From an uncultured Victivallales bacterium (GTDB lineage Bacteria > Verrucomicrobiota > Kiritimatiellia > UBA8416 > CAZASC01): DNA of 64,000 nt. This document shows positions 30,794 through 61,957 of this stretch, one piece after another; within the stretch, counting starts at the first letter, position 1; every line of letters begins with the position of its first letter. Where the stretch lies: NCBI GenBank assembly GCA_964487695.1, contig CAZASC010000003.1:19306-83305 (forward strand). Direction: 5' to 3'. The notes beneath the pieces were generated by a model that was not told the origin of the DNA, did not search any database, and was given only the letters and a program-made list of their open reading frames with translations. Both the position numbers and the translations under genes were made by a program.

Positions 30794-30997
30794 TGCGCTT
30801 TATTTTATCCATAATATTCATCGTCAACAATGGGATAATTCTACAGGACATCCGTTCGCGAGGGCTTTCCCCTTGAGTCCGCCGTGCAGTCTACTGTATA
30901 TTTGCAACTTGTTGGCGCTTGGGATGGTGGGCGGCTCGTGAGAAATCAGGAACGCCATCCCTGGTCAACGCTGGTGTCGGACAGGGGATGTATATCC

Positions 30998-31852
30998 ATG
31001 TTGTTGGAAGCTTCATTGGCTGCTTCGGGAATCGGGCTGTTCTGCGTCGCTTCGGTGTTTTCCGTGGCCTGCCTGTTGTGTCGGAATCCGCCCGGAAGAG
31101 GTGAATTGGGAGTCTCCTTGCTTCTGGCATTGGGATGTGTCCCCCTCGTAGCGGTTCTGCTCCTGCGAAGCGCCAACACTGGCCGCGTGCCGCTCTTCAG
31201 CACTTTTGACGCCTTGACGGTCTATGGTGTGTTCCTCACCATAGCCGCACTCTGTTTCCTCACAAGACATCGGACGCAAGGAGTATTCGCGATCCTGTCC
31301 CCATATGTAACTATTATATTGATCGCAGGCTTTCCCGCCGTCGGCGTGGAAACTGGGCCTGTGCCGCATACGGTATCGAACGTGGTTTTGTTATCGCACA
31401 TGATTATCGCCTTCGCGGGATATGCGCTTTTCAGTCTGGCCAGCATTCTTGCTTTTGCCTACCTTATTCAGAATCGCAACTTCAAACATCGTAATTTCGG
31501 CGTGGTTTTCGAGCGATTGCCGGCATTGGAAACGTTGGACGACCTGATGTTCCGCCTGGTTGGTTTCGCGTTTCTCCTTCTGACGATCTCCCTCATGTTG
31601 GGCGTGTACCTGGTTCACCAGAGCGGCAGTGGCGCTGAATGGGCGGCAGACCCCAAGGTCGTGGCGACTTTTGTGACGTGGGCGCTCTACGCGGGACTAG
31701 TGCACATGCGCGCCAACGCCGGAAGGCACGGCACTCGACTGGCGCTGGTCACTTTCATCGGGCTCGCCTTTGTATTGTTTTCCATGATTGGCGTTCACAT
31801 GGTCGCGCATAGCGTCCACGGATTTGTCCAGATCGGTGTCGCAGCAAAATGA
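30998..31852 (+). CDS. CcsA-like cytochrome c assembly family / HemX-like membrane protein
   Basis: Trimmed to ATG 30998. Polytopic protein with the block ..ADPKVVATFVTWALYAGLVHMR.. seen in CcsA-like proteins encoded next to hemA. Its stop overlaps the hemA start. Confidence 0.65.
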   Translation: MLLEASLAASGIGLFCVASVFSVACLLCRNPPGRGELGVSLLLALGCVPLVAVLLLRSANTGRVPLFSTFDALTVYGVFLTIAALCFLTRHRTQGVFAILSPYVTIILIAGFPAVGVETGPVPHTVSNVVLLSHMIIAFAGYALFSLASILAFAYLIQNRNFKHRNFGVVFERLPALETLDDLMFRLVGFAFLLLTISLMLGVYLVHQSGSGAEWAADPKVVATFVTWALYAGLVHMRANAGRHGTRLALVTFIGLAFVLFSMIGVHMVAHSVHGFVQIGVAAK

Positions 31853-33192
31853 ACATGAATCTGTCGGTTCTCGGCATCAATTTTCGCACAGCTCCAATCG
31901 AGCTGCGTGAGCAGGCGTCGTTCGTCGCTGCCGATGTCGGCGTTGCGCTTGGCCGTCTGTGCGCGGAGTTTCCGGGAAGCGAAGCCGTGTTACTCTCGAC
32001 ATGCAACCGGACGGAATTATATACAGCCGGCATCGATGTGGAAGCAAAGCAAACGGCGCTTATCCGCATGCTGTTGAAGGGAAATGGATCCACTGATCTC
32101 TCTGAAGCGACACGACATTTCTACACAAAGAAGGATCTGACCGTGGCGGAACATCTACTGGCCGTCGTTTCGGGGCTGGACTCCATGGTGGTAGGCGAAA
32201 CGGAAATCCTTGGCCAGGTCAAACAGGCATACATGCTTGCTGAACAGGCTCAAGCCCTTGGCAAAGCCCTGGATCCCTTGTTCCAGAATGCGTTCAGGAT
32301 CGCCAAGCGGATACACACCGAAACGGATCTGTGCCGGGGCCGCGTATCCGTCAGCTCCATCGCGGTTGAATTCGCAGAGAAAGTATTTGAGGATCTGGGA
32401 TCCAAGACGGTGATGATCGTGGGAGCCGGCGAAACCGCAGAGCTATCGCTGAAAAGTCTTATCGAAAGGGGCGCAAAGGAGGTGCTCGTGCTCAACCGTT
32501 CCCTGGAGAGGGCGTTGTCGCTGGCTGAACGATACGGAGGGCGCGCCATTCCTTATGACCTTCTCGATGACTACCTGCCCCGCGCCGACATCGTAATCAG
32601 CTCGACCAGTGCGCCGCACTGTGTAATCCGCGAGGCCACCGTACGCAAGGCCGTTGCAGTGCGCCGCGGTTTACCCCTGTTGTTGATCGATATCGCCGTT
32701 CCACGCGACATTGAACCAGCCGCCGGAGAACTGGCGAACGTATATCTCTACGACATTGACGATCTGCAGCGTGTGGCAGCAGAAAATCTGGCGAAGCGGC
32801 AGGAATCCGTGGAAGAAGCCCGAAAGATTATTCGGGAGGGTGCGGCTGAGGTCGCGTGCATGTTCGAAAGCGCAGACCTGAGGGAGATGATGCGCAGGCT
32901 GGACGAATTCGGGCAGGAGGTATCTGATACTGTGCTGCAGCGGATGCTTGCCAAGGAAAAAATGGCGGCACTGTCCGATGAAGCGCGCGAGGAAGTTCGC
33001 GCCATTGCACAAAAAGTGGTGGCAAAATTACTGGCTGGTCCAAGAGAGTCGCTCAAGCGGGCAGCCCGGAACGGCCAATGGGCGGAATATGCCAACGTGG
33101 TGAGCGATCTCTTTCGATTTAACGACCGTCCCGGCGCAGATCGAGATAATAGTGAAGCAAAAAATGATAAAGACAGCAGGAAAAGACAGTAA
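31849..33192 (+). CDS. hemA: Glutamyl-tRNA reductase
   Basis: N-terminus LSVLGINFRTAPIELRE, the catalytic-Cys block LLSTCNRTELY, and the NADPH fold VMIVGAGETAE. Confidence 0.9.
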   Translation: MNMNLSVLGINFRTAPIELREQASFVAADVGVALGRLCAEFPGSEAVLLSTCNRTELYTAGIDVEAKQTALIRMLLKGNGSTDLSEATRHFYTKKDLTVAEHLLAVVSGLDSMVVGETEILGQVKQAYMLAEQAQALGKALDPLFQNAFRIAKRIHTETDLCRGRVSVSSIAVEFAEKVFEDLGSKTVMIVGAGETAELSLKSLIERGAKEVLVLNRSLERALSLAERYGGRAIPYDLLDDYLPRADIVISSTSAPHCVIREATVRKAVAVRRGLPLLLIDIAVPRDIEPAAGELANVYLYDIDDLQRVAAENLAKRQESVEEARKIIREGAAEVACMFESADLREMMRRLDEFGQEVSDTVLQRMLAKEKMAALSDEAREEVRAIAQKVVAKLLAGPRESLKRAARNGQWAEYANVVSDLFRFNDRPGADRDNSEAKNDKDSRKRQ

Positions 33193-40181: not shown

Positions 40182-41372
40182 ATGATCGGAATTTCGAAAC
40201 TTTATTGCGGCACGGTTGAACCGTCCGACCCGTTGCGTTATGGGCGGCAATCCAAAGACCTGCCTTCGCATCTCCTGCAATTTTCCGTCGACAAGAAACC
40301 TGTGGTTGTCTGGAATGTTGGCCGCCGCTGTAACCTGCGTTGTGTGCACTGCTACTCGCAATCCCGAAACGAGGATTATTCCGGAGAACTTTCCCACAAG
40401 GAAGGCATAAGGTTGATAGACGATCTTGCCGGCTTCGGTTGCCCGGTGCTCCTCTTTTCCGGCGGTGAACCTTTGATGCGTCCTGACATCTTCGAGCTCA
40501 TCGAGCACGCTTCAACAAGAAAGATGCGCGCGGTAATCTCTACCAACGGAACGCTGATCACAAAGGAAGTTGCTAAGCAAGTCAAGGCTGCCGGACTTTC
40601 GTATGTAGGCATAAGTATGGACGGTCTGAAAGAAACGAACGACTTATTCCGCGGCGTTGAAGGCGCATTCGAAGATGCTTTGGCCGGAGTGCGAAACTGT
40701 CTGGAGATGGGCGTCAAGGTGGGGCTTCGTTTTACCATGACACGCGGCAATTTTCACGACGTGGGCGGAATTCTGGATCTGATCGAACGCGAAGGCATTC
40801 CCCGTGTTTGTTTCTATCACCTCGTCTATGCAGGCCGGGGCAGCAAGCTCGTGACTTCCAGCCGGATGTCCCATGAAGAGACGCGCGCAACAGTGGATCT
40901 GATAATGAATCGCACAAAGGAACTCCACGATCGCGGGAAGCACGTCGAAGTCCTCACCGTAGACAATCATACGGACGGTCCTTATCTCTATCAGCGCCTG
41001 TTGCGCGAGAATCCGGACAAGGCCGAGGCTGTGCTGACGCTCCTTCGTATGAACGGCGGAAACAGCAGCGGGCTCGGCATCGGCTGCGTAAGCTGGGATG
41101 GTTCAGTCCATCCCGATCAGTTCTGGCGACACTACACTGCGGGCAACGTCAGGCAGAAGCCGTTTAGTGAAATCTGGGGCAATCCTACGGATGAGCTCCT
41201 GCCGAAATTGCGGACACGCAAGCAGTACATCGAGGGGCGTTGCGCCAAATGCAAATGGCTGGACATTTGCAACGGCAATTTCCGCGTTCGTGCCGAAGCG
41301 ATCACAGGGAACGTCTGGGCGGAGGAACCCGATTGTTATTTGTCCGACCGCGAAATTGGACTGGAGAGCTGA
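40182..41372 (+). CDS. ahbC: Radical SAM/SPASM enzyme, NirJ1/AhbC-like (Fe-coproporphyrin III synthase candidate)
   Basis: Radical SAM motif CNLRCVHCY. The N-terminus ..KLYCGTVEPSDPLRYG.. is typical of NirJ-type proteins, and there is a C-terminal SPASM-like Cys cluster (CAKCKWLDICNG). Which of the paired genes is ahbC and which ahbD is inferred from order only. Confidence 0.65.
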   Translation: MIGISKLYCGTVEPSDPLRYGRQSKDLPSHLLQFSVDKKPVVVWNVGRRCNLRCVHCYSQSRNEDYSGELSHKEGIRLIDDLAGFGCPVLLFSGGEPLMRPDIFELIEHASTRKMRAVISTNGTLITKEVAKQVKAAGLSYVGISMDGLKETNDLFRGVEGAFEDALAGVRNCLEMGVKVGLRFTMTRGNFHDVGGILDLIEREGIPRVCFYHLVYAGRGSKLVTSSRMSHEETRATVDLIMNRTKELHDRGKHVEVLTVDNHTDGPYLYQRLLRENPDKAEAVLTLLRMNGGNSSGLGIGCVSWDGSVHPDQFWRHYTAGNVRQKPFSEIWGNPTDELLPKLRTRKQYIEGRCAKCKWLDICNGNFRVRAEAITGNVWAEEPDCYLSDREIGLES

Positions 41373-41373
41373 T

Positions 41374-42471
41374 ATGCACCCCCACGCACCGCACGGCTCC
41401 GCTGCGACTGGCAACGAGCTGCGTCTCGTTTTCTGGGAACTCACTGCGCGCTGTAATCTAACATGCAAGCACTGCCGGGCGGAGGCGCAGGATCATTTCG
41501 TCCAAGGCGAACTGAGCACCGAAGAAGTCATGCAGGTTGCCACGGATATTCGCGAGTGTGGCGACCCTATAATGATCCTGACAGGCGGCGAACCGCTGGT
41601 AAGAACCGATATCTACGACATCGCCAAATATTGTTCCGGCATCTTCACGCGGGTCGCCATGGCCACAAACGGCACGCTGATTGACGACAAGGTTGCTAAG
41701 AAGATTGCGGACTGTGGCATCCAGCGGGTGAGCGTTAGTCTGGACGGTGCTACAGCCGCTACGCACGATGCCTTTCGAGGTCTGCCCGGAAGTTTCGATG
41801 CGACTTTGCGCGGGTTCGATGCGCTTCGGCGTGCAGGCGTATCGGTCCAGGTGAATGTAACGGCTTCACGCTACAACCTGGCTGAGATTGAAGACATCCT
41901 CAATCTCGCGCTCGCACGAGGGGCAGATGCGTTTCATGTGTTTGTCCTTGTGCCGGTCGGTTGCGGCGCCGAACTGGATGAAGCCGCGCGATTGACCCCT
42001 GCAGAAATGGAGAAAGTGCTTCGATGGCTCTTTGAGAAGTCGCTCGAACTGCGCGGGCAGGTGCATATCAAGGCGACATGCGCGCCCCAGTATTACAGGA
42101 TCATGCGCGAAATATCCCGAGACAAGGGACTTCAGGTTGAAAGCTCAGGTCACGGCATGCAGGCCATGACTCGCGGCTGTCTCGCAGGTTCGGCGGTATG
42201 CTTCATTTCGCGCATCGGCGATGTTCAACCATGCGGCTATCTTCCAGTACGAGTTGGTAACGTGCTGGAAAAGAAGTTTGGAAACATCTGGAAAGAATCG
42301 GAAGTTTTTCAGGCATTGCGCGACCCCGGCGAGTTGAAAGGCAAATGCCACGCTTGCGGCTATCGGAAACTCTGTGCCGGATGTCGCGCCCGCGCATACG
42401 CCGACACCACTGATTTTCTAGGCGAAGACCCGGATTGTGCCTATGTCCCGGTCACGGAGACAAGCGGATGA
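41374..42471 (+). CDS. ahbD: Radical SAM/SPASM enzyme, NirJ2/AhbD-like (heme b synthase candidate)
   Basis: Trimmed to ATG 41374, 1 nt after the ahbC stop. Radical SAM motif CNLTCKHCR and a C-terminal Cys cluster (CHACGYRKLCAGCRARA). Confidence 0.65.
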   Translation: MHPHAPHGSAATGNELRLVFWELTARCNLTCKHCRAEAQDHFVQGELSTEEVMQVATDIRECGDPIMILTGGEPLVRTDIYDIAKYCSGIFTRVAMATNGTLIDDKVAKKIADCGIQRVSVSLDGATAATHDAFRGLPGSFDATLRGFDALRRAGVSVQVNVTASRYNLAEIEDILNLALARGADAFHVFVLVPVGCGAELDEAARLTPAEMEKVLRWLFEKSLELRGQVHIKATCAPQYYRIMREISRDKGLQVESSGHGMQAMTRGCLAGSAVCFISRIGDVQPCGYLPVRVGNVLEKKFGNIWKESEVFQALRDPGELKGKCHACGYRKLCAGCRARAYADTTDFLGEDPDCAYVPVTETSG

Positions 42472-43985: not shown

Positions 43986-44813
43986 ATGAAACAAGCAGTC
44001 TTGTTCGCTTTGCCAGGGACAAGTTCGGAGGATGCCGGCAAAACACTCGACCACATTGACGACTTGTTTTGCCGCCGTTTCAGCAGAGTTTCCAAGGGTT
44101 GGGCCTACACGTCGTCGGGTGTCAGGAAGAAACTGGAGCAGAACGGAAGAATCTCGAAAGTTCCTTATGAATCGCTCTCCGAATTGCGAAAGCAAGGGAT
44201 CACACATCTGGCCGTCAAATCTCTTCACTTGGTGTCCGGCGTTGAATATACTGAACTCAAGAAGCTGCTGCAGGAATTCACCGGTACGCCGAATGGATTC
44301 GTGCAGACTATTCTTTCCAAACCACTTCTGGATGCTCCAGGAGACTTCGAGCGCACTGTGCGCTGGCTGCTTGACGAGCTGCCAAAATGTGATGCGCTAC
44401 TGCTCGTGGCCCACGGCAGCAAGCGTCATGAAGCACAATCGGCTTACGAAGCGGCGGCGACTCTCTGTCGCAAGCTTGACCGGCGGGTGATTCTGAGTAC
44501 GCTGATGTCAAATCACGGTCTTGAAGATGTGATCAGGGAATGCAAGACTTCAGGCCTGACGCAACTTGTAATAGCGCCGTTGATGATCGTCGCCGGGCTT
44601 TCCACGCGAAACGAACTGGCAGGCAACGATCCTGCATCATGGGCTTCTGCGTTTGAACGCGAGGGCATACGTTGTGTACCCGTGATCAAGGGATTGGGGG
44701 ATAACGATGATATTGTCCGGATCTGGTTGGATGATGTCGAACGTATGATGCTTGAGTTGTCCCGAGAGACTTTTTCTGGAATAGTTGAGAATGAACCGCA
44801 GATTGACGAATGA
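43986..44813 (+). CDS. cbiK: CbiK-family sirohydrochlorin chelatase-like protein
   Basis: Alignable by eye to CbiK: ALPGTS, YTSSGVRKKL, KSLHLVSGVEY, VAHGS, APLMIVAG, SW, GLGDNDDI. The last 8 codons and the stop lie inside repeat copy B. Confidence 0.7.
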   Translation: MKQAVLFALPGTSSEDAGKTLDHIDDLFCRRFSRVSKGWAYTSSGVRKKLEQNGRISKVPYESLSELRKQGITHLAVKSLHLVSGVEYTELKKLLQEFTGTPNGFVQTILSKPLLDAPGDFERTVRWLLDELPKCDALLLVAHGSKRHEAQSAYEAAATLCRKLDRRVILSTLMSNHGLEDVIRECKTSGLTQLVIAPLMIVAGLSTRNELAGNDPASWASAFEREGIRCVPVIKGLGDNDDIVRIWLDDVERMMLELSRETFSGIVENEPQIDE

Positions 44814-44958: not shown

Positions 44959-45474
44959 ATGCGAAAGAAGACTGCTTCTCGTCCGATTTTACCCGCCTGC
45001 CTGCTGGTCGCGGGTCGCCCGTGCCTTGTTGTCGGCGGGGGCCAGATCGCAACGCGCAAAGCCGGCCACTTGCTTGATGCCGAGGCCGATATAACCGTTG
45101 TCGCTTCCACTGTCACGGAAGCGCTTCGGGAACTCGCCGCTTCCGGGAGGCTTCGGATAATAGCGCGTAATTTTTCGGCGTCAGACATTACAGGGCAGTA
45201 TTTGGTCTTCGCGGCAACGGACGATGAAGATGTGAACAGACAAGTCATTGCGGCCTGTCGCAAGAGCGGCATACTTTGCAGCGCCGTGGACAGTTGCTGG
45301 ACCGAAGGCGATTTCGTTACACCCGCAATATGCAGGAAGAACGGTCTTGTTGTGACAGTTTCGACAGGCGGTCGCTCATGCCGGCAGTCGAGGATGGTTA
45401 AAGAGAGGATCGCGCAAATGCTCGACGCAATGACCGAAGAAGCATCCATGGAAGAAAAGAATGACGCCAAATAG
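44959..45474 (+). CDS. sirC: Precorrin-2 dehydrogenase / sirohydrochlorin ferrochelatase (SirC / CysG N-terminal / Met8-like)
   Basis: Trimmed to ATG 44959. Rossmann block LLVAGRPCLVVGGGQIATRKAGHLLDA, and a size typical of SirC. Confidence 0.75.
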   Translation: MRKKTASRPILPACLLVAGRPCLVVGGGQIATRKAGHLLDAEADITVVASTVTEALRELAASGRLRIIARNFSASDITGQYLVFAATDDEDVNRQVIAACRKSGILCSAVDSCWTEGDFVTPAICRKNGLVVTVSTGGRSCRQSRMVKERIAQMLDAMTEEASMEEKNDAK

Positions 45475-47602
45475 AATTCCACTTAAAGCCGGAACCCGGG
45501 CCAGCAAACTTGCGCGCGTCCAGACTCGCGATGCCTTGGACAAACTTGAGGCATGTTTCCCGGTGTGCACGTTCGAGGATGTGCCCATTTCTTCGCCGGG
45601 CGACCGCGATCTCACGACGGACCTGCGCGTGACGCCGCCAGATTTCTTCACCCGCGACCTTGACGAGAAAGTGCGGAGCGGCGAGTTGGACTGCGCAGTA
45701 CACAGCGCAAAAGATATACCCGATCCCGTGAAGGCGGGATTGGATTGGTTTTGGCTGCCATGGTCCGAGGATGCGCGCGATGCAATTATCATGCCGACCG
45801 GACGCAGCGTGAAAGACATCCCCGCCAATGCAAGAATCGGTGTGAGCAGCGATCGGCGCGAAGCATACTGCCGTCGCAGATTTCCCAATGCGAGTCTGAA
45901 CAACATCAGGGGCAATATCGAGCAGCGTCTGGAACAACTCGACCGGGGTGATTACGACATGCTGATCATGGCCGCCGCCGCGCTAGTGCGACTGGGGCTT
46001 GAGAAACGAATTACCGAATGGATTTCTCTATCGGAACTGCCGCCGCCGGACGGACAAGGATATCTGGGCATGACCTTTAGAGGCGGCGACGAACGCTTCA
46101 CGCGCCTCCGATCGTTCTTTGTCAAAGCAGTCACATTTGCCGCCGCCGGTGTTGGTTCCGGCGGAACCTGCACGCTCGACGCGCTTAAGGCACTTCGTCG
46201 GTGCGACACATGTCTGCACGACGATCTTATGGGCCCTGATCTTCTCGATCAGATTCCGTCGAACGTGGAATGCGTGCATGTCGGCAAGCGATCGGGCCGG
46301 CATAGCATGCCACAGGAGGAAATTACTCAACTCGTCGCCAAGTACGCACGCCGTGGTCTGCGGGTCGTTCGCCTGAAAGGTGGAGATCCGGGAATCTTTG
46401 GCCGTCTCGCTGAGGAAGTTGAGGTTCTCGATTCGCTGGCGTTGCCATACTGCGTATTGCCCGGCGTGAGCAGTCTCATGGCGGCGACAACTGGCACCGG
46501 AATGCTTCTCACACGGCGTGGCGTGTCGCGCGGCTTCACCGTCATGACACCTCGCATGCAAGGCGGTGACATCGGTTCCATCGGCGCTTCCGTTCGCGCG
46601 GGTCTGTCCACTGTGTTTTACATGTCCGTCTCGATCACAAGACAGATCGCAAAGGAATTAATGGATGAAGGACGGTCGCCAGACACGCCGGCCGCCATGG
46701 TTTACGGAGCTGGCGGCGATCAGGCTTTTGTGGTTTCGGGAATTCTCGCCGACATAGCCGACAAGGTGGAGCAAGTTACCACGCAATTGCCCGGCACGCT
46801 TATTATTGGCGAAGCCGCAGGATATCGTTATCGCACCGAATGGGGCGCCCTTCAGGGACGGCGCATTTTGCTGACATCAAGCCAGTCACTTCAGGACAAG
46901 GCCGGCGGCCTGGTGACCGACTTCGGCGGTATCCCGATATTTCGCCCGCTAATCAAGCTGGTGACCACGGACGACGCTTTGCAGTGCATTAGCAGGATCA
47001 AGGAATATGATTGGGTCGTGCTGACATCGCCATCCGCTGTTCGGTGTTTCGCGGACCTGCTGAGAAGCGCGGGAACTGATTTACGTTCTCTTCCTAAACT
47101 CGTAACTTGCGGCGGCGGTACGTCTGATGAACTCCGCGTTATGGGGCTTCGCGCAGACATCGAGCCTCCTTCGAATTTCGGCGCAGATGGTCTGTTGAAA
47201 ACTGTCGAGCCTCTAGTGAGATCGGGCATGCGAATCCTGCGTCTGCGTTCCGACAAGGCCGGCGCGGGCCTATCCGAAGCCTTGCGTGGCCGGGGAGCAA
47301 ATGTGGAAGATTGCATCTTGTACAAGAATGAGCCCATCGAATACGACACCAAGCCGGAATTTGACGCCGTCTTCTTCGCCAGCGCTTCCGCCGTCGAAGT
47401 CTTCGACAAACAGTGGGGAGTTGAAGGGTTGGAAAAGAAGACCGTTGTGGCGATCGGAAAACCTACTCTAGCGGCTTTGGAAAAACGGGGCGCCAAGGTT
47501 AATCTGGTTGGTCCTGAAGCAACGGTGGAATCGTGCCTGACGGAGTTGGCCCGTAAGTACACAAATGAATCACTGAATTCAATAATGGAGAAAACATCAT
47601 GA
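45461..47602 (+). CDS. Triple fusion: HemC-like (domains 1-2 only) + uroporphyrinogen-III C-methyltransferase (CobA) + uroporphyrinogen-III synthase (HemD)
   Basis: aa 1-~215 are HemC-like (GTRASKLARVQ, HSAKDIP, SSDRREAY, IRGNIEQRL, PPDGQGYLGMTFR). aa ~216-470 are SUMT-like (VGKRSGRHSMPQEEI, VVRLKGGDPGIFGR, VLPGVSS). aa ~470-713 are HemD-like (RILLTS.., WVVLTSPSAVRCF, AVFFASASAV). Confidence 0.8.
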   Translation: MTPNRIPLKAGTRASKLARVQTRDALDKLEACFPVCTFEDVPISSPGDRDLTTDLRVTPPDFFTRDLDEKVRSGELDCAVHSAKDIPDPVKAGLDWFWLPWSEDARDAIIMPTGRSVKDIPANARIGVSSDRREAYCRRRFPNASLNNIRGNIEQRLEQLDRGDYDMLIMAAAALVRLGLEKRITEWISLSELPPPDGQGYLGMTFRGGDERFTRLRSFFVKAVTFAAAGVGSGGTCTLDALKALRRCDTCLHDDLMGPDLLDQIPSNVECVHVGKRSGRHSMPQEEITQLVAKYARRGLRVVRLKGGDPGIFGRLAEEVEVLDSLALPYCVLPGVSSLMAATTGTGMLLTRRGVSRGFTVMTPRMQGGDIGSIGASVRAGLSTVFYMSVSITRQIAKELMDEGRSPDTPAAMVYGAGGDQAFVVSGILADIADKVEQVTTQLPGTLIIGEAAGYRYRTEWGALQGRRILLTSSQSLQDKAGGLVTDFGGIPIFRPLIKLVTTDDALQCISRIKEYDWVVLTSPSAVRCFADLLRSAGTDLRSLPKLVTCGGGTSDELRVMGLRADIEPPSNFGADGLLKTVEPLVRSGMRILRLRSDKAGAGLSEALRGRGANVEDCILYKNEPIEYDTKPEFDAVFFASASAVEVFDKQWGVEGLEKKTVVAIGKPTLAALEKRGAKVNLVGPEATVESCLTELARKYTNESLNSIMEKTS

Positions 47603-48579
47603 ATACATTTCCCGATGTCAGGCTTCGCCGGTTGCGTCGTACATCATCGCTGCGGAATATGTTCGACATGCCGATGCCGGGGCCGGAGAAGTTTATATGG
47701 CCGGCATTTGTTGTGGCCGGAAAGAAGCAGCGTCAGAAGATTGATGCCATGCCCGGTCAGTATCGTTGCAGCGTGGACACGCTTTTGAAGGAACTGAAAC
47801 CGGTTGTGGAGTCTGGAGTGGGCGGAGTTCTGCTTTTCGGCCTTGTGGACGACGACAAGAAAGACCACAAGGGCACCGCTGCGTGTGAAGAGAGCGGCGC
47901 GGTCCAGCAGGCGGTGAGGGCAATCCGCGCCGAATATCCCGATCTGGTGATCTTCACCGATGTGTGTCTTTGCGCTTACACGACGCATGGCCACTGCGGG
48001 CCCGTGCGTGATGACGACGTGGATAACGACGCAGCCAATGAGATGCTGGCCAAAGTGGCCGTTTCCCATGCCGCAGCCGGCGCGCACGGCGTGGCGCCGA
48101 GCGCCATGATGGATGGCCAGGTACAAGCTATACGTTCTGCCCTGAGTTCATCAGGATTCGAGCAGACCATACTGATGAGTTATTCAAGCAAGTTTGCCTC
48201 ATCCATGTACGGGCCATTCCGGGAAGCTGAAAAGTCGTCGCCGCAAAAAGGTGACCGGCGCGGTTACCAGGCCAGCTATGGTGACATCAGGCAGGCATTG
48301 CGCGAGTCCAAGCTGGACGAGCAGGAAGGAGCGGACATCCTCATGGTCAAGCCATCGCTATTTTATCTGGACATCATTGCCCGTCTTCGCGAAATGACCG
48401 ATCTGCCTATTGCCGTGTATAATGTGAGCGGAGAATATTCGATGCTGATTGCCACCGCCGATCGCGGTTGGGGCAATCTGCGTGATATGGTGCGCGAATC
48501 AACCGTTGCACTGGCCAGATCGGGGGCCGATCTGTTGATTTCGTACTGGGCCAATAGGTATAGGGAGTTTCTAAAATAG
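47599..48579 (+). CDS. hemB: Porphobilinogen synthase (ALA dehydratase), Zn-type
   Basis: RLRRLR N-terminus, Cys-rich Zn site DVCLCAYTTHGHCG, and Schiff-base Lys context ILMVKPS. Confidence 0.9.
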   Translation: MNTFPDVRLRRLRRTSSLRNMFDMPMPGPEKFIWPAFVVAGKKQRQKIDAMPGQYRCSVDTLLKELKPVVESGVGGVLLFGLVDDDKKDHKGTAACEESGAVQQAVRAIRAEYPDLVIFTDVCLCAYTTHGHCGPVRDDDVDNDAANEMLAKVAVSHAAAGAHGVAPSAMMDGQVQAIRSALSSSGFEQTILMSYSSKFASSMYGPFREAEKSSPQKGDRRGYQASYGDIRQALRESKLDEQEGADILMVKPSLFYLDIIARLREMTDLPIAVYNVSGEYSMLIATADRGWGNLRDMVRESTVALARSGADLLISYWANRYREFLK

Positions 48580-48667
48580 TGTGCAGTGTTCAGTGGTCGG
48601 TGTTTAGGAAAAGAACCAAGTGCTGAACACTGACCACCGAACGCTGACCACTGAGAGAGGGACCAAC

Positions 48668-49942
48668 ATGACATCGAAAGAGTTGTTTGAAAGGGCCAAG
48701 CTCGTCATCCCCGGCGGAGTGAACAGTCCGGTTCGCGCATTCAACGCCGTCGGTGGCGACCCCATTTACGTGGAAAAAGGCAAAGGTTCCAGAATATGGA
48801 CGGCTGAAGGTCGGGAGCTGACTGACTTCTGTGGCTCATGGGGACCGCTGATACTTGGACATGCGCGTGCCGAAATAGTTGACGCCATCCAGCGCGCTGC
48901 GGCGGAAGGCACCACGTTTGGAATCAATACCAGACGCGAAGTGGAGTTCGCCGAATATTTATGCGAATTGGTTCCCTATATGGATATGGTGCGATTGGTC
49001 AATTCCGGCACCGAAGCCGTTATGACAGCGCTTCGCCTTGCGCGAGGATTCACCGGTCGGATCAAGCTCATCAAATTCGACGGCTGTTATCACGGCCACG
49101 CCGACTACCTGCTCGTCTCCGCCGGTAGCGGATTACTGACCGGCGGCATCACATCGTCGGCAGGTGTTTCGCCCGCAGCAGTGGCGGAAGTGCTGGTGCT
49201 TCCGTATAACGATCTTGATGCCGTGCGCAGCGTGCTGGACAAAGACGGCAAAGAAATAGCCGCAGTCATAATCGAACCAGTGGCAGGCAACATGGGGTTG
49301 GTTCCTCCGGCTACGGGATTTTTGAAAGGGCTTCGGGAATTAACGCAGGCGTGCGGTTCGTTGCTTATTTTTGACGAGGTCATCACTGGCTTTCGTCTTG
49401 GCCCGACAACATACGGATCGCTTTGCGGAGTGACGCCAGATCTGACATGTCTCGGCAAGATCATCGGAGGCGGGATGCCGATCGGTGCGGTTGGCGGCAG
49501 GGCTGAGATCATGCGCTCGCTGGCCCCGCTCGGTCCCGTGTATCAGGCTGGAACGCTCAGCGGCAACCCAGTTGCCGTGGCGGCTGGAATGATGACGCTG
49601 CAGTTGCTCAAGAAAGAGAATCCGTATCCAGCTATGGAATCGCTCTGCAAGAGTCTTGCGGATGGCGTTAATGCTGAGGCGCGGAAGCACGGCGTTGTCC
49701 TGCATTGTGCGCAACTCGGCGGATTGTTTACACCGTTCTTCACCAGCACTCAGGTGACAGATCTTGCCACCGCGAAGCATTCAAACGTGAAAGCTCATGC
49801 CGCGTTCTTCCACGGGATGCTGGATCGCGGCTTCTATTTGCCGCCATCGCAGTTTGAAGTGGGTTTTGTTTCCTCCGCTCACAACGCCGGGGACATCGAA
49901 CGCTTTGTGAAGGCCGCCGGCGCAGCTCTATCGGCATACTGA
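48668..49942 (+). CDS. hemL: Glutamate-1-semialdehyde 2,1-aminomutase
   Basis: Trimmed to ATG 48668 (GAGAGAGGG RBS). Contains IPGGVNSPVRAF, FDEVITGFR and the PLP-Lys block LGKIIGGGMPIGA. Confidence 0.9.
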   Translation: MTSKELFERAKLVIPGGVNSPVRAFNAVGGDPIYVEKGKGSRIWTAEGRELTDFCGSWGPLILGHARAEIVDAIQRAAAEGTTFGINTRREVEFAEYLCELVPYMDMVRLVNSGTEAVMTALRLARGFTGRIKLIKFDGCYHGHADYLLVSAGSGLLTGGITSSAGVSPAAVAEVLVLPYNDLDAVRSVLDKDGKEIAAVIIEPVAGNMGLVPPATGFLKGLRELTQACGSLLIFDEVITGFRLGPTTYGSLCGVTPDLTCLGKIIGGGMPIGAVGGRAEIMRSLAPLGPVYQAGTLSGNPVAVAAGMMTLQLLKKENPYPAMESLCKSLADGVNAEARKHGVVLHCAQLGGLFTPFFTSTQVTDLATAKHSNVKAHAAFFHGMLDRGFYLPPSQFEVGFVSSAHNAGDIERFVKAAGAALSAY

Positions 49943-54623: not shown

Positions 54624-54974
54624 ATGAATTACTTTCTTGTGCTTCTATTTATCGGGTTAACCGGAGCCTTCGTCTTTGGTGGACTCATTGCTTCCTTTCT
54701 TATTGCTCCGCATAAGCCCGGCAAGGTGAAGAACTCGCCCTACGAATGCGGTGAGAAACCCATGGGCTCGGCGTGGGTCCAATTCAACGTCGGCTATTAC
54801 CTCTTTGCGCTTTTATTCCTGGTTTTCGATGTTGAGGCCGCGTTCCTTTATCCATGGGCCGTTGTGCTGCGCGAAGTTGGCGTGGCAGGGCTGATGGAAG
54901 CCGGCGTTTTCATCCTGATCCTGCTCTCGGCGCTGGTTTACGCCTGGCGTAAAGGAGTGTTGGAATGGGTGTAA
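54624..54974 (+). CDS. nuoA: NADH-quinone oxidoreductase subunit A
   Basis: 116 aa, 3 TM, YECGE motif. Confidence 0.9.
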   Translation: MNYFLVLLFIGLTGAFVFGGLIASFLIAPHKPGKVKNSPYECGEKPMGSAWVQFNVGYYLFALLFLVFDVEAAFLYPWAVVLREVGVAGLMEAGVFILILLSALVYAWRKGVLEWV

Positions 54975-55624
54975 TCACCGAAAAGCTTCCCATCTACATA
55001 GAGCCTATGCCGGGCGGCTCGATGGTTTTGACGAGCATGGATTTCATGATCAACTGGGCGCATGCCAACAGTCTCTGGCCCCTGACTTTCGGTACAAGTT
55101 GCTGCGCCATCGAGGTGATGATGGCTGCCGGCGCTTCAAATCACGATCTCGCACGATTCGGCGCAGAAGTGGCAAGGGCAACGCCCCGGCAGGCCGATTT
55201 GCTGGTTGTTGCCGGCACGATCGTCAAACGCATGGCGCCGATACTGAAGACTCTGTACGCGCAAATGGGGGAACCGCGCTATGTCATCGCCACCGGCTCC
55301 TGCGCGATTTCGGGCGGACCGTTCGTTTTCAATTCGTATACGACGATCCGGGGCGTTGACCAGCTTATACCCGTGGACGTTTACGTCCCGGGTTGTCCTC
55401 CTCGGCCCGAGGCGTTTTTCTACGGGCTGCTGACGCTTCAGCGAATGATCAAGGAAGGCGAAACTGTCCGCAAACCCGGCATTCGCCGTAAACCGGTCAT
55501 GGCTGCATTGCCGGAAGGAATTACCATCGCGGATATACAAGCCGAATTGGCCGCACTTCTCGATCGAAACGCCACTGTCAATGTGCCGCAGCAATGCAAG
55601 GAAAGGGATCTCGATGAGCCCTGA
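54965..55624 (+). CDS. nuoB: NADH-quinone oxidoreductase subunit B (N2 cluster), with C-terminal extension
   Basis: GTSCCAIE, GSCAISGG and VPGCPPRPEA cysteines, plus ~50 extra C-terminal residues. Confidence 0.9.
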   Translation: MGVITEKLPIYIEPMPGGSMVLTSMDFMINWAHANSLWPLTFGTSCCAIEVMMAAGASNHDLARFGAEVARATPRQADLLVVAGTIVKRMAPILKTLYAQMGEPRYVIATGSCAISGGPFVFNSYTTIRGVDQLIPVDVYVPGCPPRPEAFFYGLLTLQRMIKEGETVRKPGIRRKPVMAALPEGITIADIQAELAALLDRNATVNVPQQCKERDLDEP

Positions 55625-56078
55625 CGATCTTGTTGCGGCGGTCATAGCCATCGAGTCAGGAGTTGCAAAGAAGGATCTTTGTGACCGGCTCGCGGTCAAC
55701 GTTTTGCCTGAAACGCTGCTCAAATTCATGCAGAGGCTTCACGACGACCCGCAACTGGCTTTCGATATGCTGTACACTCACACCGCAGTTGATTATCCAG
55801 TGGAAAACAGGATCGAACTTATATATCAACTCTATTCGGTGAAGCAGCGGCATTATCTTATGGTGGCGACGTCGGTGAAGCGCGACAAACCGGAAATCTC
55901 CAGCGTGAGTTCCATCTGGCGCATCGCAGAGTGGCATGAGCGCGAGGTCTACGATTTGTTTGGCGTCCTCTATGACGGGCATCCAGATCTCCGGCGACTG
56001 TTTCTCGATGACGATTGGAAAGGCTTTCCGCTAAGAAAAGACTACAAAGATGATTTCATGTTGGAGCGCCCGGAATGA
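55614..56078 (+). CDS. nuoC: NADH-quinone oxidoreductase subunit C
   Basis: 30-kDa family block WHEREVYDLFGVLYDGHPDLRRLF. Start taken at ATG 55614. Confidence 0.85.
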   Translation: MSPDDLVAAVIAIESGVAKKDLCDRLAVNVLPETLLKFMQRLHDDPQLAFDMLYTHTAVDYPVENRIELIYQLYSVKQRHYLMVATSVKRDKPEISSVSSIWRIAEWHEREVYDLFGVLYDGHPDLRRLFLDDDWKGFPLRKDYKDDFMLERPE

Positions 56079-57235
56079 GCATCAGAGTCACGACTCTCGA
56101 CGAAAAGATTCATGAAATCCCAACGAACGAAAGTCCGATGGCGAGTCAGGAATATTTTGTCAACATGGGCCCCCAGCATCCTTCAACCCACGGCGTACTC
56201 CGGCTTGTCCTGAAAATGGACGGTGAAACCGTGCGCGAGATTTTACCGGTTCTCGGCTATATCCATAGGGGCATCGAGAAAAAAGGCGAACATATCGGCT
56301 ATCGCCAGTTCGTCCACTTGACAGACCGGCTGGATTATCTTTCGGCGCTCGCCAATAACTGGGCAGTATCGATGGTCGTGGAAAAGGCCATGAACATCGA
56401 ACTCAACGATCGCATACAGACGATCCGCACCATCATGGCAGAGCTTCAGAGAATACAGAGCCATCAACTCTGGTGGGGCGTTTTCGGGATGGACCTTGGG
56501 GCTTTCACGCCGTTTCTTTACGGGTTCCGCGACCGCGAGAAGATCACGACAATACTGGAAGAAACAATCGGCGCGCGGTTGACAATGAATTACATCCAGC
56601 CCGGCGGGTTGATGTTCGACATTCAGCCGGATTTCGCGAAAAAGGTGAAGGAATTCATTTCTTACTTCAAGCCTAAGCTTGAGGAATATGAAACGCTTGT
56701 ATCAAACAACGTCATCTTCGAGCAGAGGATGAAAAACGTGGGCATTCTTGATGCCGCGACGGCGGTTTCGATTGGGACAACAGGCCCGGTCTTGCGCGCC
56801 AGCGGCGTTGCGCACGACCTGCGCAAGGACGAACCTTATGGAGTGTATGGCAAAGTCCAATTCAAGGTTGCGGTGGGCAGCGTTGGCGACTCATGGGATC
56901 GCTACCGGGTTCGCATCGAAGAGATGCGCCAGTCCATACAGATCGTCGAGCAGTTGATTGACAACATTCCTGAAGGCAAAACTTTGGTGATGAAACCGGC
57001 CATAAAAATCAAATTACCGGCGGGCAATTATTACAGCCATATCGAGACGGCACGCGGCATATTCGGCGTGTTTGTTGTCGCCGACGGAACGGACAGGCCT
57101 TACAGGATCCATCTGCGGACGCCTAATTTCAACAACCTTTGGGCTGTCACCGTGACAGCGCCTGGCTGGCGGCTGGCTGACTTGGTGACTATTCTTTCGT
57201 CACTTGATATTGTCGTTCCAGACATTGATCGATGA
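56075..57235 (+). CDS. nuoD: NADH-quinone oxidoreductase subunit D
   Basis: 49-kDa family blocks NMGPQHPSTHGVLRL and RIHLRTPNFNN. Confidence 0.9.
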   Translation: MSIRVTTLDEKIHEIPTNESPMASQEYFVNMGPQHPSTHGVLRLVLKMDGETVREILPVLGYIHRGIEKKGEHIGYRQFVHLTDRLDYLSALANNWAVSMVVEKAMNIELNDRIQTIRTIMAELQRIQSHQLWWGVFGMDLGAFTPFLYGFRDREKITTILEETIGARLTMNYIQPGGLMFDIQPDFAKKVKEFISYFKPKLEEYETLVSNNVIFEQRMKNVGILDAATAVSIGTTGPVLRASGVAHDLRKDEPYGVYGKVQFKVAVGSVGDSWDRYRVRIEEMRQSIQIVEQLIDNIPEGKTLVMKPAIKIKLPAGNYYSHIETARGIFGVFVVADGTDRPYRIHLRTPNFNNLWAVTVTAPGWRLADLVTILSSLDIVVPDIDR

Positions 57236-57245
57236 GATTTTGAAA

Positions 57246-58334
57246 ATGAACACAACCTGGAAAGTTACAACTGTTGCGCAGCGAGCAGCCGAAGCCCTGC
57301 CGGCACATCCATGGATCGCGAGCGGCTATTTGCTTCTTGGTGTGGCAGGCATCGGGGCTTTCGTCGCCGGTCTTGGGCTGGCCATGATCTACGCTGAACG
57401 CAAAATCGCCGCGCATTTCCAGTGCCGCCTCGGCCCCATGAGGGTGGGGTGGCATGGTCTGCTGCAAACTGTGGCCGACATGCTCAAGCTCCTCATGAAG
57501 GAGGACATTGTGCCCGCCCAGGGCGATCAGCTCCTGCATCTGTTCGCGCCGCTGCTGACGTTTCTCGGAACCATGCTGGCGATCATGATGGTTCCCATGA
57601 GTCCCATCCTTCAGGTCGCTGATGTGAACATCGGCGTTCTTTATGTCACCGCGGTCAGCGGGTTCGGTGTGCTTGGCATTTTGCTTGGCGGCTGGAGCTC
57701 TAATAATAAATGGTCGCTCCTGGGCGCGATGCGCGCCGGTGCGCAAATCATTTCCTATGAAATCTCCGCCACGCTGGCGTTGCTTGTCGTTGTGATGTTC
57801 TCTGGAACACTCCAATTGTCGCATATCGTACAGAGTCAGGCCGATGGCTGGTGGATCTGGCGCGCGCCCGGCGTGGGCCTTGTTTCGTTCATCGTCTATC
57901 TCATCGCCTCGACAGCGGAAATCAACCGCACTCCGTTTGACATACCGGAAGGCGAAAGCGAGCTGACGGCCGGGTTCCACACCGAATATTCTGGAATCAG
58001 GTTCGCTTTCTTCTTTCTAGCCGAATTCATCAACATGTTCATCGTCTCGGCCATGGCGGCTACTTTGTTCCTTGGCGGCTGGATGCCTTTCCATATTGGC
58101 GGTTTTGGCACGCTGAACCATGCCATGGATTTGATACCGCCGGGATTGTGGTTCGCCGGTAAAACCGGTTTCCTGATATTCCTCATCATGTGGTTCCGCT
58201 GGACCTTTCCGCGTCTGCGCGTTGACCAGCTGATGCGGCTTGAATGGAAAATTCTGCTTCCAGTGGGTTTTGCCAATCTCCTTGTCGGCGCTAGTTTCGT
58301 GATTTTCAATCTGTACTTTTTCCCGTGGCATTAA
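57246..58334 (+). CDS. nuoH: NADH-quinone oxidoreductase subunit H
   Basis: AERKIAAHFQCRLGP and NRTPFDIPEGESELTAGFHTEYSG. Follows nuoD directly, with no nuoEFG in between. Confidence 0.9.
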   Translation: MNTTWKVTTVAQRAAEALPAHPWIASGYLLLGVAGIGAFVAGLGLAMIYAERKIAAHFQCRLGPMRVGWHGLLQTVADMLKLLMKEDIVPAQGDQLLHLFAPLLTFLGTMLAIMMVPMSPILQVADVNIGVLYVTAVSGFGVLGILLGGWSSNNKWSLLGAMRAGAQIISYEISATLALLVVVMFSGTLQLSHIVQSQADGWWIWRAPGVGLVSFIVYLIASTAEINRTPFDIPEGESELTAGFHTEYSGIRFAFFFLAEFINMFIVSAMAATLFLGGWMPFHIGGFGTLNHAMDLIPPGLWFAGKTGFLIFLIMWFRWTFPRLRVDQLMRLEWKILLPVGFANLLVGASFVIFNLYFFPWH

Positions 58335-58343
58335 GAAGTGGTT

Positions 58344-59024
58344 ATGAGTTTTGATGATAAAATAGAAGCAGGTGCGCAAAGCGCATCGGTTGTTGTTGTG
58401 GCTCGACCGGCAGAAAGGGGCATAGTGCGCTCCTTTGTGGACGGAATGATGTCCCTTTTCAAGGGCATGAAAGTGACCTTCCATTATCTCTCGCACCCAT
58501 CCACCGTGGTGACCCAGCAATATCCGGAGAATCGCAAAACCTTGCGCATGGCCGATCGTTTCAGGGGGCAACTGGCGTTTGTGCGCGACGAGAATGGCTA
58601 TCACAAATGCATCTCCTGCCACACGTGCGAAACTGCCTGTCCAAACGGTTCTATCGTTATTGATGATAGAAAAGGTGCGACCACCGGGAAGAACGAGATT
58701 AATCATTTTGTCTGGCGCTTCGACAGTTGCACTTTTTGCAATATGTGCGTCATGGTATGTCCGACGGCGGCGCTCAAGATGCTGCCCAACTTTGAATCCG
58801 CGGTTTACGATCAGAGGTTGCTGGTTTACAACTTGAACCCTTATGCGGGACCGGCTGCGCCGGTGCTTTTGAAAGTAACAGATCAGGAGGAACGCAAAAA
58901 GCTGATGGAAGCGCGAAAATTCTACGAGGGGCCAGTGCCGCTTTGCGGCGAAGCGATGCCGGGCTGTCCGGCTGAGAACCGGATTTCTCCGACACCAGAT
59001 TCTTCGGGGGAAAAGAAATGCTGA
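58344..59024 (+). CDS. nuoI: NADH-quinone oxidoreductase subunit I (2x 4Fe-4S), with C-terminal extension
   Basis: CISCHTCETACP and CTFCNMCVMVCP, plus a ~70-aa C-terminal tail. Confidence 0.85.
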   Translation: MSFDDKIEAGAQSASVVVVARPAERGIVRSFVDGMMSLFKGMKVTFHYLSHPSTVVTQQYPENRKTLRMADRFRGQLAFVRDENGYHKCISCHTCETACPNGSIVIDDRKGATTGKNEINHFVWRFDSCTFCNMCVMVCPTAALKMLPNFESAVYDQRLLVYNLNPYAGPAAPVLLKVTDQEERKKLMEARKFYEGPVPLCGEAMPGCPAENRISPTPDSSGEKKC

Positions 59025-59551
59025 GCAATTTTGTAGCCAACTTGATGTTTTACGTTCTAGCCGTAGTCGCGATCTTTTTCGCCATCGCCGTCGTCTGCAG
59101 CAGCCGGATACTTCGCGCGGCAGTTTATCTCATGTGCCTGCTGGCCACGAGCGCCGGCTTTTACCTGCTGTTGGGCGCGGAGTTCCTGGCCGGTGTTCAG
59201 ATTCTCGTTTATGTGGGCGGTATCGTTGTGTTGCTGGTGTTCGCAATAATGTTGACGCGATCCGCCGAGATGCCGGAAGACAAACCTTCGCTTTTGCGAC
59301 AGAGCCTTGGTTCGCTGGCGGCCGGCGGTTTCTTTGCGGTTACGGTGACGATGTTCCGCTTTTCTGATTTTCCAGCCCTCCAGAAAGGTGTTCTTGCAGG
59401 CGGCGACACAGCTGAAATTGGACGACGGCTTCTCAATCGCGGTGCACACGGTTATCTGTTGCCATTCGAGGTCATTTCACTCCTGCTGTTGAGCGTGGCA
59501 ATAGGCGGAATCGTTCTGGCGCGTAAACTCCATCCGAAAGGAGGGGAGTAA
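59018..59551 (+). CDS. nuoJ: NADH-quinone oxidoreductase subunit J
   Basis: Hydrophobic 177 aa. The GAEFLAGVQILVYVGGIVVL block is typical of NuoJ, and the position in the operon fits. Confidence 0.8.
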   Translation: MLSNFVANLMFYVLAVVAIFFAIAVVCSSRILRAAVYLMCLLATSAGFYLLLGAEFLAGVQILVYVGGIVVLLVFAIMLTRSAEMPEDKPSLLRQSLGSLAAGGFFAVTVTMFRFSDFPALQKGVLAGGDTAEIGRRLLNRGAHGYLLPFEVISLLLLSVAIGGIVLARKLHPKGGE

Positions 59552-59613
59552 TCGTGCAGCAATGTTTCGCCACACATTTCCCAGGAGTTGTTCTGTGGTT
59601 GAAATGCTTTGCC

Positions 59614-59928
59614 ATGCATTCTCCAGGAGTTTTTCACTGGCTGGTACTTTCGACGCTGCTGTTTTCGATCGGCATTTATGGCGTGCTAACCCGCCGGAAT
59701 GCGGTTGGTATTCTCATGGCCGTCGAGCTTCTGCTGAACTCTGGTGCGCTGAATTTTGTGGTTTTCGACCGGTACGTAGCGCCCGGCGTCGTGGATGGCG
59801 AAATCATGGCTATCTTCATCATTGCTGTGGCGGCGGCGGAAGTGGTTGCGGGCATGGCTATCTTCGTTACTTTGTTCAGGAACCGTAAAACGGTTGACGT
59901 GACCAGTATGGACATGATGAAACATTGA
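59614..59928 (+). CDS. nuoK: NADH-quinone oxidoreductase subunit K
   Basis: ~100-aa 3-TM protein with LSTLLFSIGIYGVLTRRN..MAVELLLNSGALNFV. Start is uncertain: ATG 59614, or GTG 59554 as in the track. Confidence 0.8.
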   Translation: MHSPGVFHWLVLSTLLFSIGIYGVLTRRNAVGILMAVELLLNSGALNFVVFDRYVAPGVVDGEIMAIFIIAVAAAEVVAGMAIFVTLFRNRKTVDVTSMDMMKH

Positions 59929-59954
59929 CGGATAGATTGACGGAGTTCGTTTTT

Positions 59955-61955: not shown

Positions 61956-61957
61956 AA

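Follow-up and report, generated by a model that had tools for sequence, protein, structure and literature searches.

A HemC–CobA–HemD fusion with a two-domain HemC module in a siroheme-dependent haem operon of a Kiritimatiellia bacterium

The fusion and its HemC module

The window studied here is a stretch of 64 000 nucleotides (nt) from an uncultured Victivallales bacterium of the Kiritimatiellia (GenBank assembly GCA_964487695.1, contig CAZASC010000003.1, positions 19,306 to 83,305). It carries a haem-biosynthesis operon in which a single open reading frame (ORF) of 713 amino acids (aa) joins a hydroxymethylbilane synthase (HMBS, HemC; also called porphobilinogen deaminase, PBGD), an S-adenosylmethionine (SAM)-dependent uroporphyrinogen III methyltransferase (SUMT, CobA) and a uroporphyrinogen III synthase (UroS, HemD). 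HMBS is the textbook example of a self-priming enzyme: it makes a covalent primer, a dipyrromethane, and keeps it on a cysteine of its domain 3 (C242 in Escherichia coli, C261 in human). The HemC part of the fusion, hereafter HemC′, consists of domains 1 and 2. A first, sequence-only reading of this DNA had recognized a HemC–CobA–HemD triple fusion, and three Pfam domains do indeed lie in one ORF over exactly the interval proposed (Table 1): Porphobil_deam (PF01379) at aa 9–213 (E = 4e-51, 174 bits), TP_methylase at aa 224–432 and HEM4 at aa 485–693. The motifs quoted in that reading are all present, at aa 12–21, 81–87, 129–134, 149–157, 195–207 and 229–242. At its ATG the fusion overlaps the 3′ end of sirC by 14 nt; at its other end, the TGA and the ATG of hemB overlap as ATGA.

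The same reading had held that the HemC part retains its catalytic residues and lacks both domain 3 and the cofactor cysteine; Pfam, NCBIfam, alignment with PDB chains and a predicted structure all bear this out. Porphobil_deamC (PF03900), the Pfam model of the missing domain, has no match in the 713-aa protein, and a profile search for a deamC-like segment with its cysteine between aa 200 and 300 found none. The NCBIfam hemC equivalog TIGR00212 is matched with 176 bits (cut-off 164), although only over profile positions 1–210 of 293. Solved PBGD chains align to aa 5–216 (E of about 1e-32), the alignments ending at the boundary between domains 2 and 3, and no position of the fusion aligns with the cofactor cysteine (C242 in E. 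coli). An AlphaFold2 model of the fusion, computed with 70 homologues in the input, has a mean predicted local distance difference test score (pLDDT) of 88.4 and a predicted template-modelling score (pTM) of 0.87. PBGD structures superpose on it with Z scores of 19–24 and root-mean-square deviations of about 1.8–2 Å over 200–217 residues, corresponding to domains 1 and 2. In canonical enzymes domain 3 begins at the position of the fusion junction (aa 217–223). In the model the last HemC helix (aa 211–220), which is the helix returning from domain 2 to domain 1 and ends the module, leads directly into a SUMT strand (aa 224–228), and there would therefore be no room for domain 3. No trace of it is left in the other reading frames at the junction.

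The SUMT module adopts the expected fold in the model, with Z scores of 15–17 to CysG, SUMT and NirE structures. Its glycine loop, AAGVGSGGTCTL, which includes Cys237, was rightly noted as divergent: the family pattern AAG(V/A)GS(A/G)G(A/T)CT departs from the canonical GAGPGDPxLLT. This divergence characterizes the Kiritimatiellia lineage; at other loci (L038, L059, L066, L026 and L077) the loop has the canonical form or comes close to it. The module would methylate uroporphyrinogen III at C2 and C7 in a SAM-dependent manner, since no other TP_methylase domain was found in this genome, which has a siroheme-dependent operon. For the HemD module, several NCBIfam HemD models match aa 463–701, and the fold is that of a two-lobed UroS (Z scores of 15–17 to PDB entries 4ES6, 1WD7 and 3RE1).

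The fusion is not an artefact, because its architecture is widely shared and its junction recurs in independent data. At least 120 protein clusters, with 55–78% identity, contain the same three Pfam domains and lack PF03900, the named ones coming mostly from metagenome-assembled genomes (MAGs) of Kiritimatiellia/Kiritimatiellota. The junction (nt 46097–46133) is bridged with no differences and no indels by contigs of two independent runs, one from a wetland (X2) and one from peat (X3). A sequencing or assembly deletion had been named as one way to explain the junction; with these clusters and contigs, and with the other frames empty, we regard the removal of domain 3 by such a deletion or by a frameshift as refuted, having found nothing in its support. 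One X3 contig (depth 2.3) joins position 45587 to 45964 through 31 unrelated letters, a net in-frame loss of 115 codons within the HemC′ module; it may be a chimera or stem from a relative. Contigs from wetland RNA libraries cover 46151–46436, 47215–47379 and 48229–48441 and leave the junction unbridged; DNA carry-over is possible.

A canonical hemC encoded elsewhere had also been envisaged. The source genome (4.96 Mb in 354 contigs, 92% complete) contains no match to PF03900, even at E ≤ 1, whereas PF01379, PF00590 and PF02602 match exactly once each, all within the fusion ORF; a profile search of the genome for a second hemC was thus negative. Nor was a canonical hemC found in about 90 relatives. 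Of 151 sampled genomes of the class, 98 have PF01379 and only six have PF03900 above its cut-off, the latter with ordinary HemC frames of 305–375 aa. In nearly all of the other PF01379-positive genomes the domain lies inside frames of about 650–770 aa, and the members without PF03900 include two single-contig genomes (G100 and G137). A weak match to PF03900 in G100 (19 bits, below the cut-off, inside a 1366-aa frame) was treated as spurious. RsmI-type 16S rRNA methyltransferases belong to PF00590 as well; the fusion SUMT being the only match to this family, no RsmI was found in the 92%-complete genome.

The two-domain HemC clade and its active site

Loss of domain 3 is not peculiar to the triple fusion but defines a large clade of single origin, a point that the sequence-only reading had missed; the window gene is one ordinary member of this clade. 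A query with HemC′ alone retrieved many proteins of about 215–240 aa whose sole Pfam domain is PF01379; contigs of 50–99 kb encode some of these. From loci in named genomes and from a profile search of 1.84 billion representatives we collected seven settings of the two-domain module, the window type counting as one of them. Domain-3-less HemCs occur in Omnitrophota, Chlamydiota, Planctomycetota, Spirochaetota and others. The module stands alone in Omnitrophota and Chlamydiae; elsewhere it is fused, as HemC′–HemD, HemC′–CobA (Candidatus Termititenax), HemA–HemC′, SirC–HemA–HemC′ or HemC′–CobA–HemD, the last of these being found beyond Kiritimatiellia in Spirochaetota, Planctomycetota and a rumen MAG. 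In the SirC–HemA–HemC′ proteins (P0256, P0272, P0336 and about 20 more) and the HemA–HemC′ proteins (P0244, P0258 and P0282) the module is C-terminal, and the polypeptide stops where domain 3 would begin. Five further genomes with short forms were likewise devoid of PF03900 matches. Two oddities were seen on the way: in P0250 (433 aa), HemC′ is preceded by 200 N-terminal residues with no Pfam match, and in an Omnitrophota-like MAG (L011, 6945–8705) a HemA without its dimerization domain and a short HemC share one open frame of 587 aa.

An Omnitrophica locus (L009) shows the gene order hemA, hemC′ (226 aa), cobA–hemD (with a 4-nt overlap), hemB, hemL, and thus corresponds to the window operon with a stop codon still between hemC′ and cobA–hemD. 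In an unrooted IQ-TREE phylogeny of 111 sequences, built from the columns of domains 1 and 2 only, all 40 short HemCs fall on one side of a single branch (Shimodaira–Hasegawa-like approximate likelihood-ratio support 100, length 0.38), so that the trait maps as one change and the domain-3-less HemCs form one clade of single origin. The Kiritimatiellia fusions, including the window protein, form a clade (support 100, stem 0.67) nested among the short HemCs. The canonical HemC of a Kiritimatiellia genome (L003, G028) clusters with sequences from Myxococcota and Thermodesulfobacteriota, which suggests that the few Kiritimatiellia with a canonical HemC acquired it as a replacement by lateral transfer.

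The residues kept in the clade can be compared with those that bind pyrroles in the human enzyme. There, residues of domains 1 and 2 alone make up the substrate site and pyrrole sites 1 and 2, whereas sites 3–5 take the displaced cofactor on a mobile loop of domain 3, helped by lysines of the lid loop (PMC7959689). The human substrate site comprises R26, S28, Q34, F77, S96, D99, R167 and R173, site 1 K98, R150 and R195, and site 2 S147, R149, R150 and R173 (PMC7959689, Table 2). Their equivalents in the window protein are R13, S15, Q21, F63, S82, K84, D85, S130, R132, R133, R150, R156 and R177, and in our alignment these residues are universal in the short and canonical groups alike. Also present in the module are D48, Q199 and G200, which complete the E. 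coli set running from R11 through D84 to R155; D85 corresponds to the catalytic D84 of E. coli. The machinery that binds three pyrroles and catalyses their condensation is thus intact.

What has changed lies around the cofactor. The window protein carries the clade-specific residues D50, D61, F62, T64, D68, D88, Q/E155 and A174, and the derived residues common to the short clade are D50, D61, F62, T64, D68 and E155, together with I149 and I153. Position 61 is an invariant Asp in the clade as against Gly in 89% of canonical forms, and the GGKG motif at the end of the lid is gone. Of the residues that stabilize the displaced cofactor, the Thr of site 4 is replaced by Asp or Glu and the lysines of the lid by acidic residues; further replacements are those of the Thr beside E. 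coli R155 (99% conserved in canonical forms) by Glu or Gln, and E. coli G173 by Ala. The net charge of the lid accordingly differs, being +0.3 in canonical forms and −2 to −2.6 in short ones. The elements that would hold a tethered, polyanionic cofactor and draw it back have thus been lost or have become repulsive to it.

Gene neighbourhood and proposed reaction

The genes around the fusion (Table 1) make up, together with it, a complete route from glutamate to haem b via siroheme (the Ahb route).

Table 1. Features of the fusion ORF (upper rows) and of its neighbourhood (lower rows), in window coordinates.
Feature	Position	Strand	Evidence or remark
Whole ORF, HemC′ (two-domain)–SUMT–HemD fusion, 713 aa, ATG start	45461..47602	+	Pfam, NCBIfam
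HemC′ module, aa 1–218, PBGD domains 1 and 2	45461..46114	+	Pfam, PDB alignment, structure comparison
Junction, aa 217–223, last HemC helix into SUMT strand 1	46109..46129	+	AlphaFold2 model, alignments
SUMT/CobA module, aa 222–460	46124..46840	+	TIGR01469, 188.6 bits (cut-off 185)
Divergent SUMT glycine loop, aa 227–239, AAGVGSGGTCTL, with Cys237	46139..46177	+	
HemD/UroS module, aa 465–705	46853..47575	+	HEM4 (PF02602), 140.7 bits, over cut-off
CcsA-type cytochrome c assembly protein (haem consumer)	30884..31852	+	
HemA, glutamyl-tRNA reductase	31849..33192	+	
ORF, 478 aa	33379–34815	+	no Pfam/NCBIfam match
Multihaem cytochrome c, 514 aa	34827–36371	+	
Multihaem cytochrome c, 919 aa	36478–39237	+	
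ORF, 270 aa	39245–40057	+	no Pfam/NCBIfam match
AhbC, 12,18-didecarboxysiroheme deacetylase	40182..41372	+	TIGR04546, 670 bits (cut-off 650)
AhbD-like radical SAM/SPASM protein	41425..42471	+	start inferred from profile match
Fused AhbA/AhbB siroheme decarboxylase, 335 aa	42967..43974	+	Pfam, NCBIfam
CbiK-type sirohydrochlorin chelatase	43986..44813	+	Pfam, NCBIfam
SirC-type precorrin-2 dehydrogenase, 175 aa	44947..45474	+	Pfam, NCBIfam
HemB, porphobilinogen synthase	47599..48579	+	
HemL, glutamate-1-semialdehyde aminomutase	48620..49942	+	

The best match of the AhbD-like protein is the haem b synthase model TIGR04545, with 453 bits (under the cut-off of 500). In the decarboxylase, AhbA (alpha) and AhbB (beta) lie in one ORF, and both NCBIfam equivalogs are over their cut-offs. 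SirC is short, covering only positions 2–147 of the 205-position cysG_Nterm model. The cluster also contains two large multihaem cytochromes c, which have MtrC/MtrF-like and c7/c554-like repeats; their genes lie between hemA and ahbC, flanked by the two ORFs without matches. Downstream (54965–63475, forward strand) there is a series of complex I (nuo-type) genes encoding 20-kDa, 49-kDa, NuoH-, NuoL- and NuoM-like subunits. A homologue of siroheme-dependent reductases (NIR_SIR) on another contig is a further consumer of the pathway. Given this need and the presence of the rest of the pathway, HemC′ is the only candidate for the step from porphobilinogen (PBG) to the bilane.

We therefore propose, with a probability of roughly 0.6, that the fusion is a trifunctional enzyme leading from PBG to precorrin-2, in which HemC′ would be active without a Cys-tethered dipyrromethane and would hand its bilane over to HemD. 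The textbook HMBS reaction is then probably carried out in a way that has not yet been described. The modules would act in the order HemC′, HemD, SUMT. HemC′ would polymerize PBG without the tethered primer; the first pyrrole units, bound non-covalently in sites 1 and 2, might serve in its place, or a transient or labile bond might form on a residue other than cysteine, for which the clade-invariant Asp61, beside F63, is the most obvious candidate. The bilane would pass directly to the adjacent HemD and its product to SUMT. Extended to the whole two-domain clade, chlamydial enzymes included, the idea that the bilane is built without a Cys link, primed by bound pyrroles or a labile Asp61 ester, and goes straight to HemD is more tentative, and we put it at a little under an even chance.

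The nearest alternative is that a Cys-linked dipyrromethane has been retained on a cysteine specific to the lineage, namely C237 (21 residues past the junction), C137 or C78, in line with the suggestion of the sequence-only reading that a cysteine might be borrowed from elsewhere in the fusion. Eight cysteines (C78, C137, C237, C248, C251, C529, C550 and C618) are each 88–99% conserved among 108 members of the Kiritimatiellia family, the three candidates being kept in 88–92% of them; SUMT follows HemC′ with almost no linker; and some structural alignments, with model ranges reaching 268–330, place a few SUMT residues on residues of PBGD domain 3. Yet the canonical SUMT residues occupy position 237 (Leu or Gly) in 11% of the family and position 251 (Val) in 9%, and the candidates are not conserved in the sister short HemCs (0–16%), among which five complete stand-alone proteins contain no cysteine at all. 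One such Cys-free protein is predicted to fold confidently on its own (pLDDT 93.1). Cys237 was in fact considered as a general substitute for C242 and rejected, being absent from the other HemC′–CobA fusions, which have near-canonical, Cys-less loops of the GAGPGDP type, and variable within its own family; neither the clade as a whole nor its partners have a conserved cysteine. The SirC–HemA–HemC′ fusions, moreover, stop directly after HemC′, and an Omnitrophica HemC′–HemD frame has one cysteine in total. Because the fusion partner differs by lineage, and may be N-terminal, C-terminal or absent, no fused domain can replace domain 3 in general. A tether on a lineage-specific cysteine seems to us unlikely. 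A four-Cys metal site (C237, C248, C251 and C271/C278) was also considered and dropped: in 23 of the 108 members neither C271 nor C278 is present, and the replacements are Leu or Val.

A tether might instead be supplied in trans, by a separate protein or a small-molecule thiol. Short hemC is always translationally coupled or fused to pathway enzymes, which is compatible with its working in a complex, but no PF03900-like ORF exists in the source genome, in the roughly 90 relatives of the class or in the five other genomes. The CobA and HemD partners, fused or coupled, have no conserved Cys column, which disposes of a cysteine from a coupled partner, and a neighbouring small ORF acting as domain 3 was sought between short hemC and the next gene at L009 and L036 and not found; no conserved small ORF adjoins the stand-alone short hemC genes. 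We hold this explanation to be decidedly unlikely. That HemC′ is a mere scaffold or regulatory module binding PBG or bilane, the bilane coming from a non-homologous enzyme or from scavenged tetrapyrroles, gains some weight from the fact that loss of the cofactor domain inactivates canonical HMBS (PMC7959689, PMC13564367). Against it, Asp85 and each Arg, Ser and Gln in the substrate and pyrrole sites show no variation in a clade that extends over several phyla, and genomes whose pathways are otherwise complete and which encode haem-dependent proteins have no homologue other than HemC′. We know of no alternative HMBS, and consider a purely structural or regulatory role very unlikely.

Several points nevertheless weigh against a trifunctional enzyme with an untethered primer. 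The argument for activity is one of conservation and pathway logic. C78 (88%), C137 (92%) and C237 (89%), well conserved in the Kiritimatiellia family, might act as an anchor specific to that lineage. For the source organism a missed gene is, strictly speaking, still conceivable in a genome that is 92% complete and in 354 contigs, although its closed relatives argue otherwise. Finally, the tree is unrooted and undersamples canonical diversity, because canonical HemCs were retrieved via the HSAKD pattern that they share with the short clade.

Comparison with known systems

According to a structure paper and a 2026 review, all known HMBS enzymes have three domains and a Cys-linked cofactor (PMC7959689, PMC13564367). 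We found no description of a natural domain-3-less HemC in the literature, a search that reached few subscription journals, so that absence is unproven. A large clade without domain 3 and its cysteine must have either a second way to prime and count four pyrroles or an unknown partner. If the whole two-domain clade works without a Cys link, this would represent a second catalytic strategy for an enzyme whose dependence on a Cys-linked dipyrromethane is regarded as universal. The clade also has a bearing on the role of domain 3 in the human enzyme, on pathway reconstruction in the Planctomycetota–Verrucomicrobiota–Chlamydiota (PVC) group, Omnitrophota and related phyla, and on annotation, where these proteins go unflagged under the names ‘hydroxymethylbilane synthase’ or ‘uroporphyrinogen-III C-methyltransferase’.

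Compared with canonical HMBS (E. coli HemC, PDB entries 1PDA and 1AH5; human enzyme, 7CCX and 7CCY), HemC′ shares the fold of domains 1 and 2 with 29–35% identity. It differs in lacking domain 3, the cofactor-binding loop and the cysteine, in having an acidic lid where the canonical one is Lys-rich, and in carrying Asp for the Thr of site 4 and Glu/Gln for the Thr beside E. coli R155. A short type is already represented in NCBIfam by NF002202 (PRK01066), a 241-position ‘hydroxymethylbilane synthase’ equivalog that the window protein matches at 17–222 with 141.5 bits, against a cut-off of 251. This model describes the chlamydial short HemC. Both it and HemC′ are of the short type, and the short HemCs of Chlamydiae fall in the same clade; the score below the equivalog cut-off marks the Kiritimatiellia module (stem branch 0.67) as a different subfamily.

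The CobA and HemD parts have a precedent in the biochemically characterized bifunctional CobA/HemD of Desulfovibrio vulgaris, which combines SUMT and uroporphyrinogen III synthase (PMC3004389). As in the window fusion, SUMT is followed by HemD in one chain that serves a siroheme-dependent haem route; the window fusion adds HemC′ in front and has the divergent glycine loop. The Omnitrophica locus L009 keeps the CobA–HemD order of D. vulgaris as a separate gene after its short hemC. Fusions that retain domain 3 exist too. A Clostridiales MAG (UMGS680; L077, 7998–10454, 819 aa) encodes HemC–CobA–HemD in the same enzyme order as the window fusion, and, together with it, L049 (Chloroflexia) and P0319 are fusions of the same two or three enzymes in the same order; unlike the window fusion, all three keep Porphobil_deamC and group with canonical HemCs. 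Since the triple fusion of L077 retains Porphobil_deamC, fusion and loss of domain 3 are separable events. CysG (PDB entries 1PJQ and 1PJS) is likewise a multifunctional tetrapyrrole enzyme, and its SUMT is the best structural match for aa 220–456 (Z score of about 17). It joins SUMT to a dehydrogenase/chelatase, whereas the window fusion joins SUMT to HemC and HemD and leaves SirC and the chelatase to separate genes.

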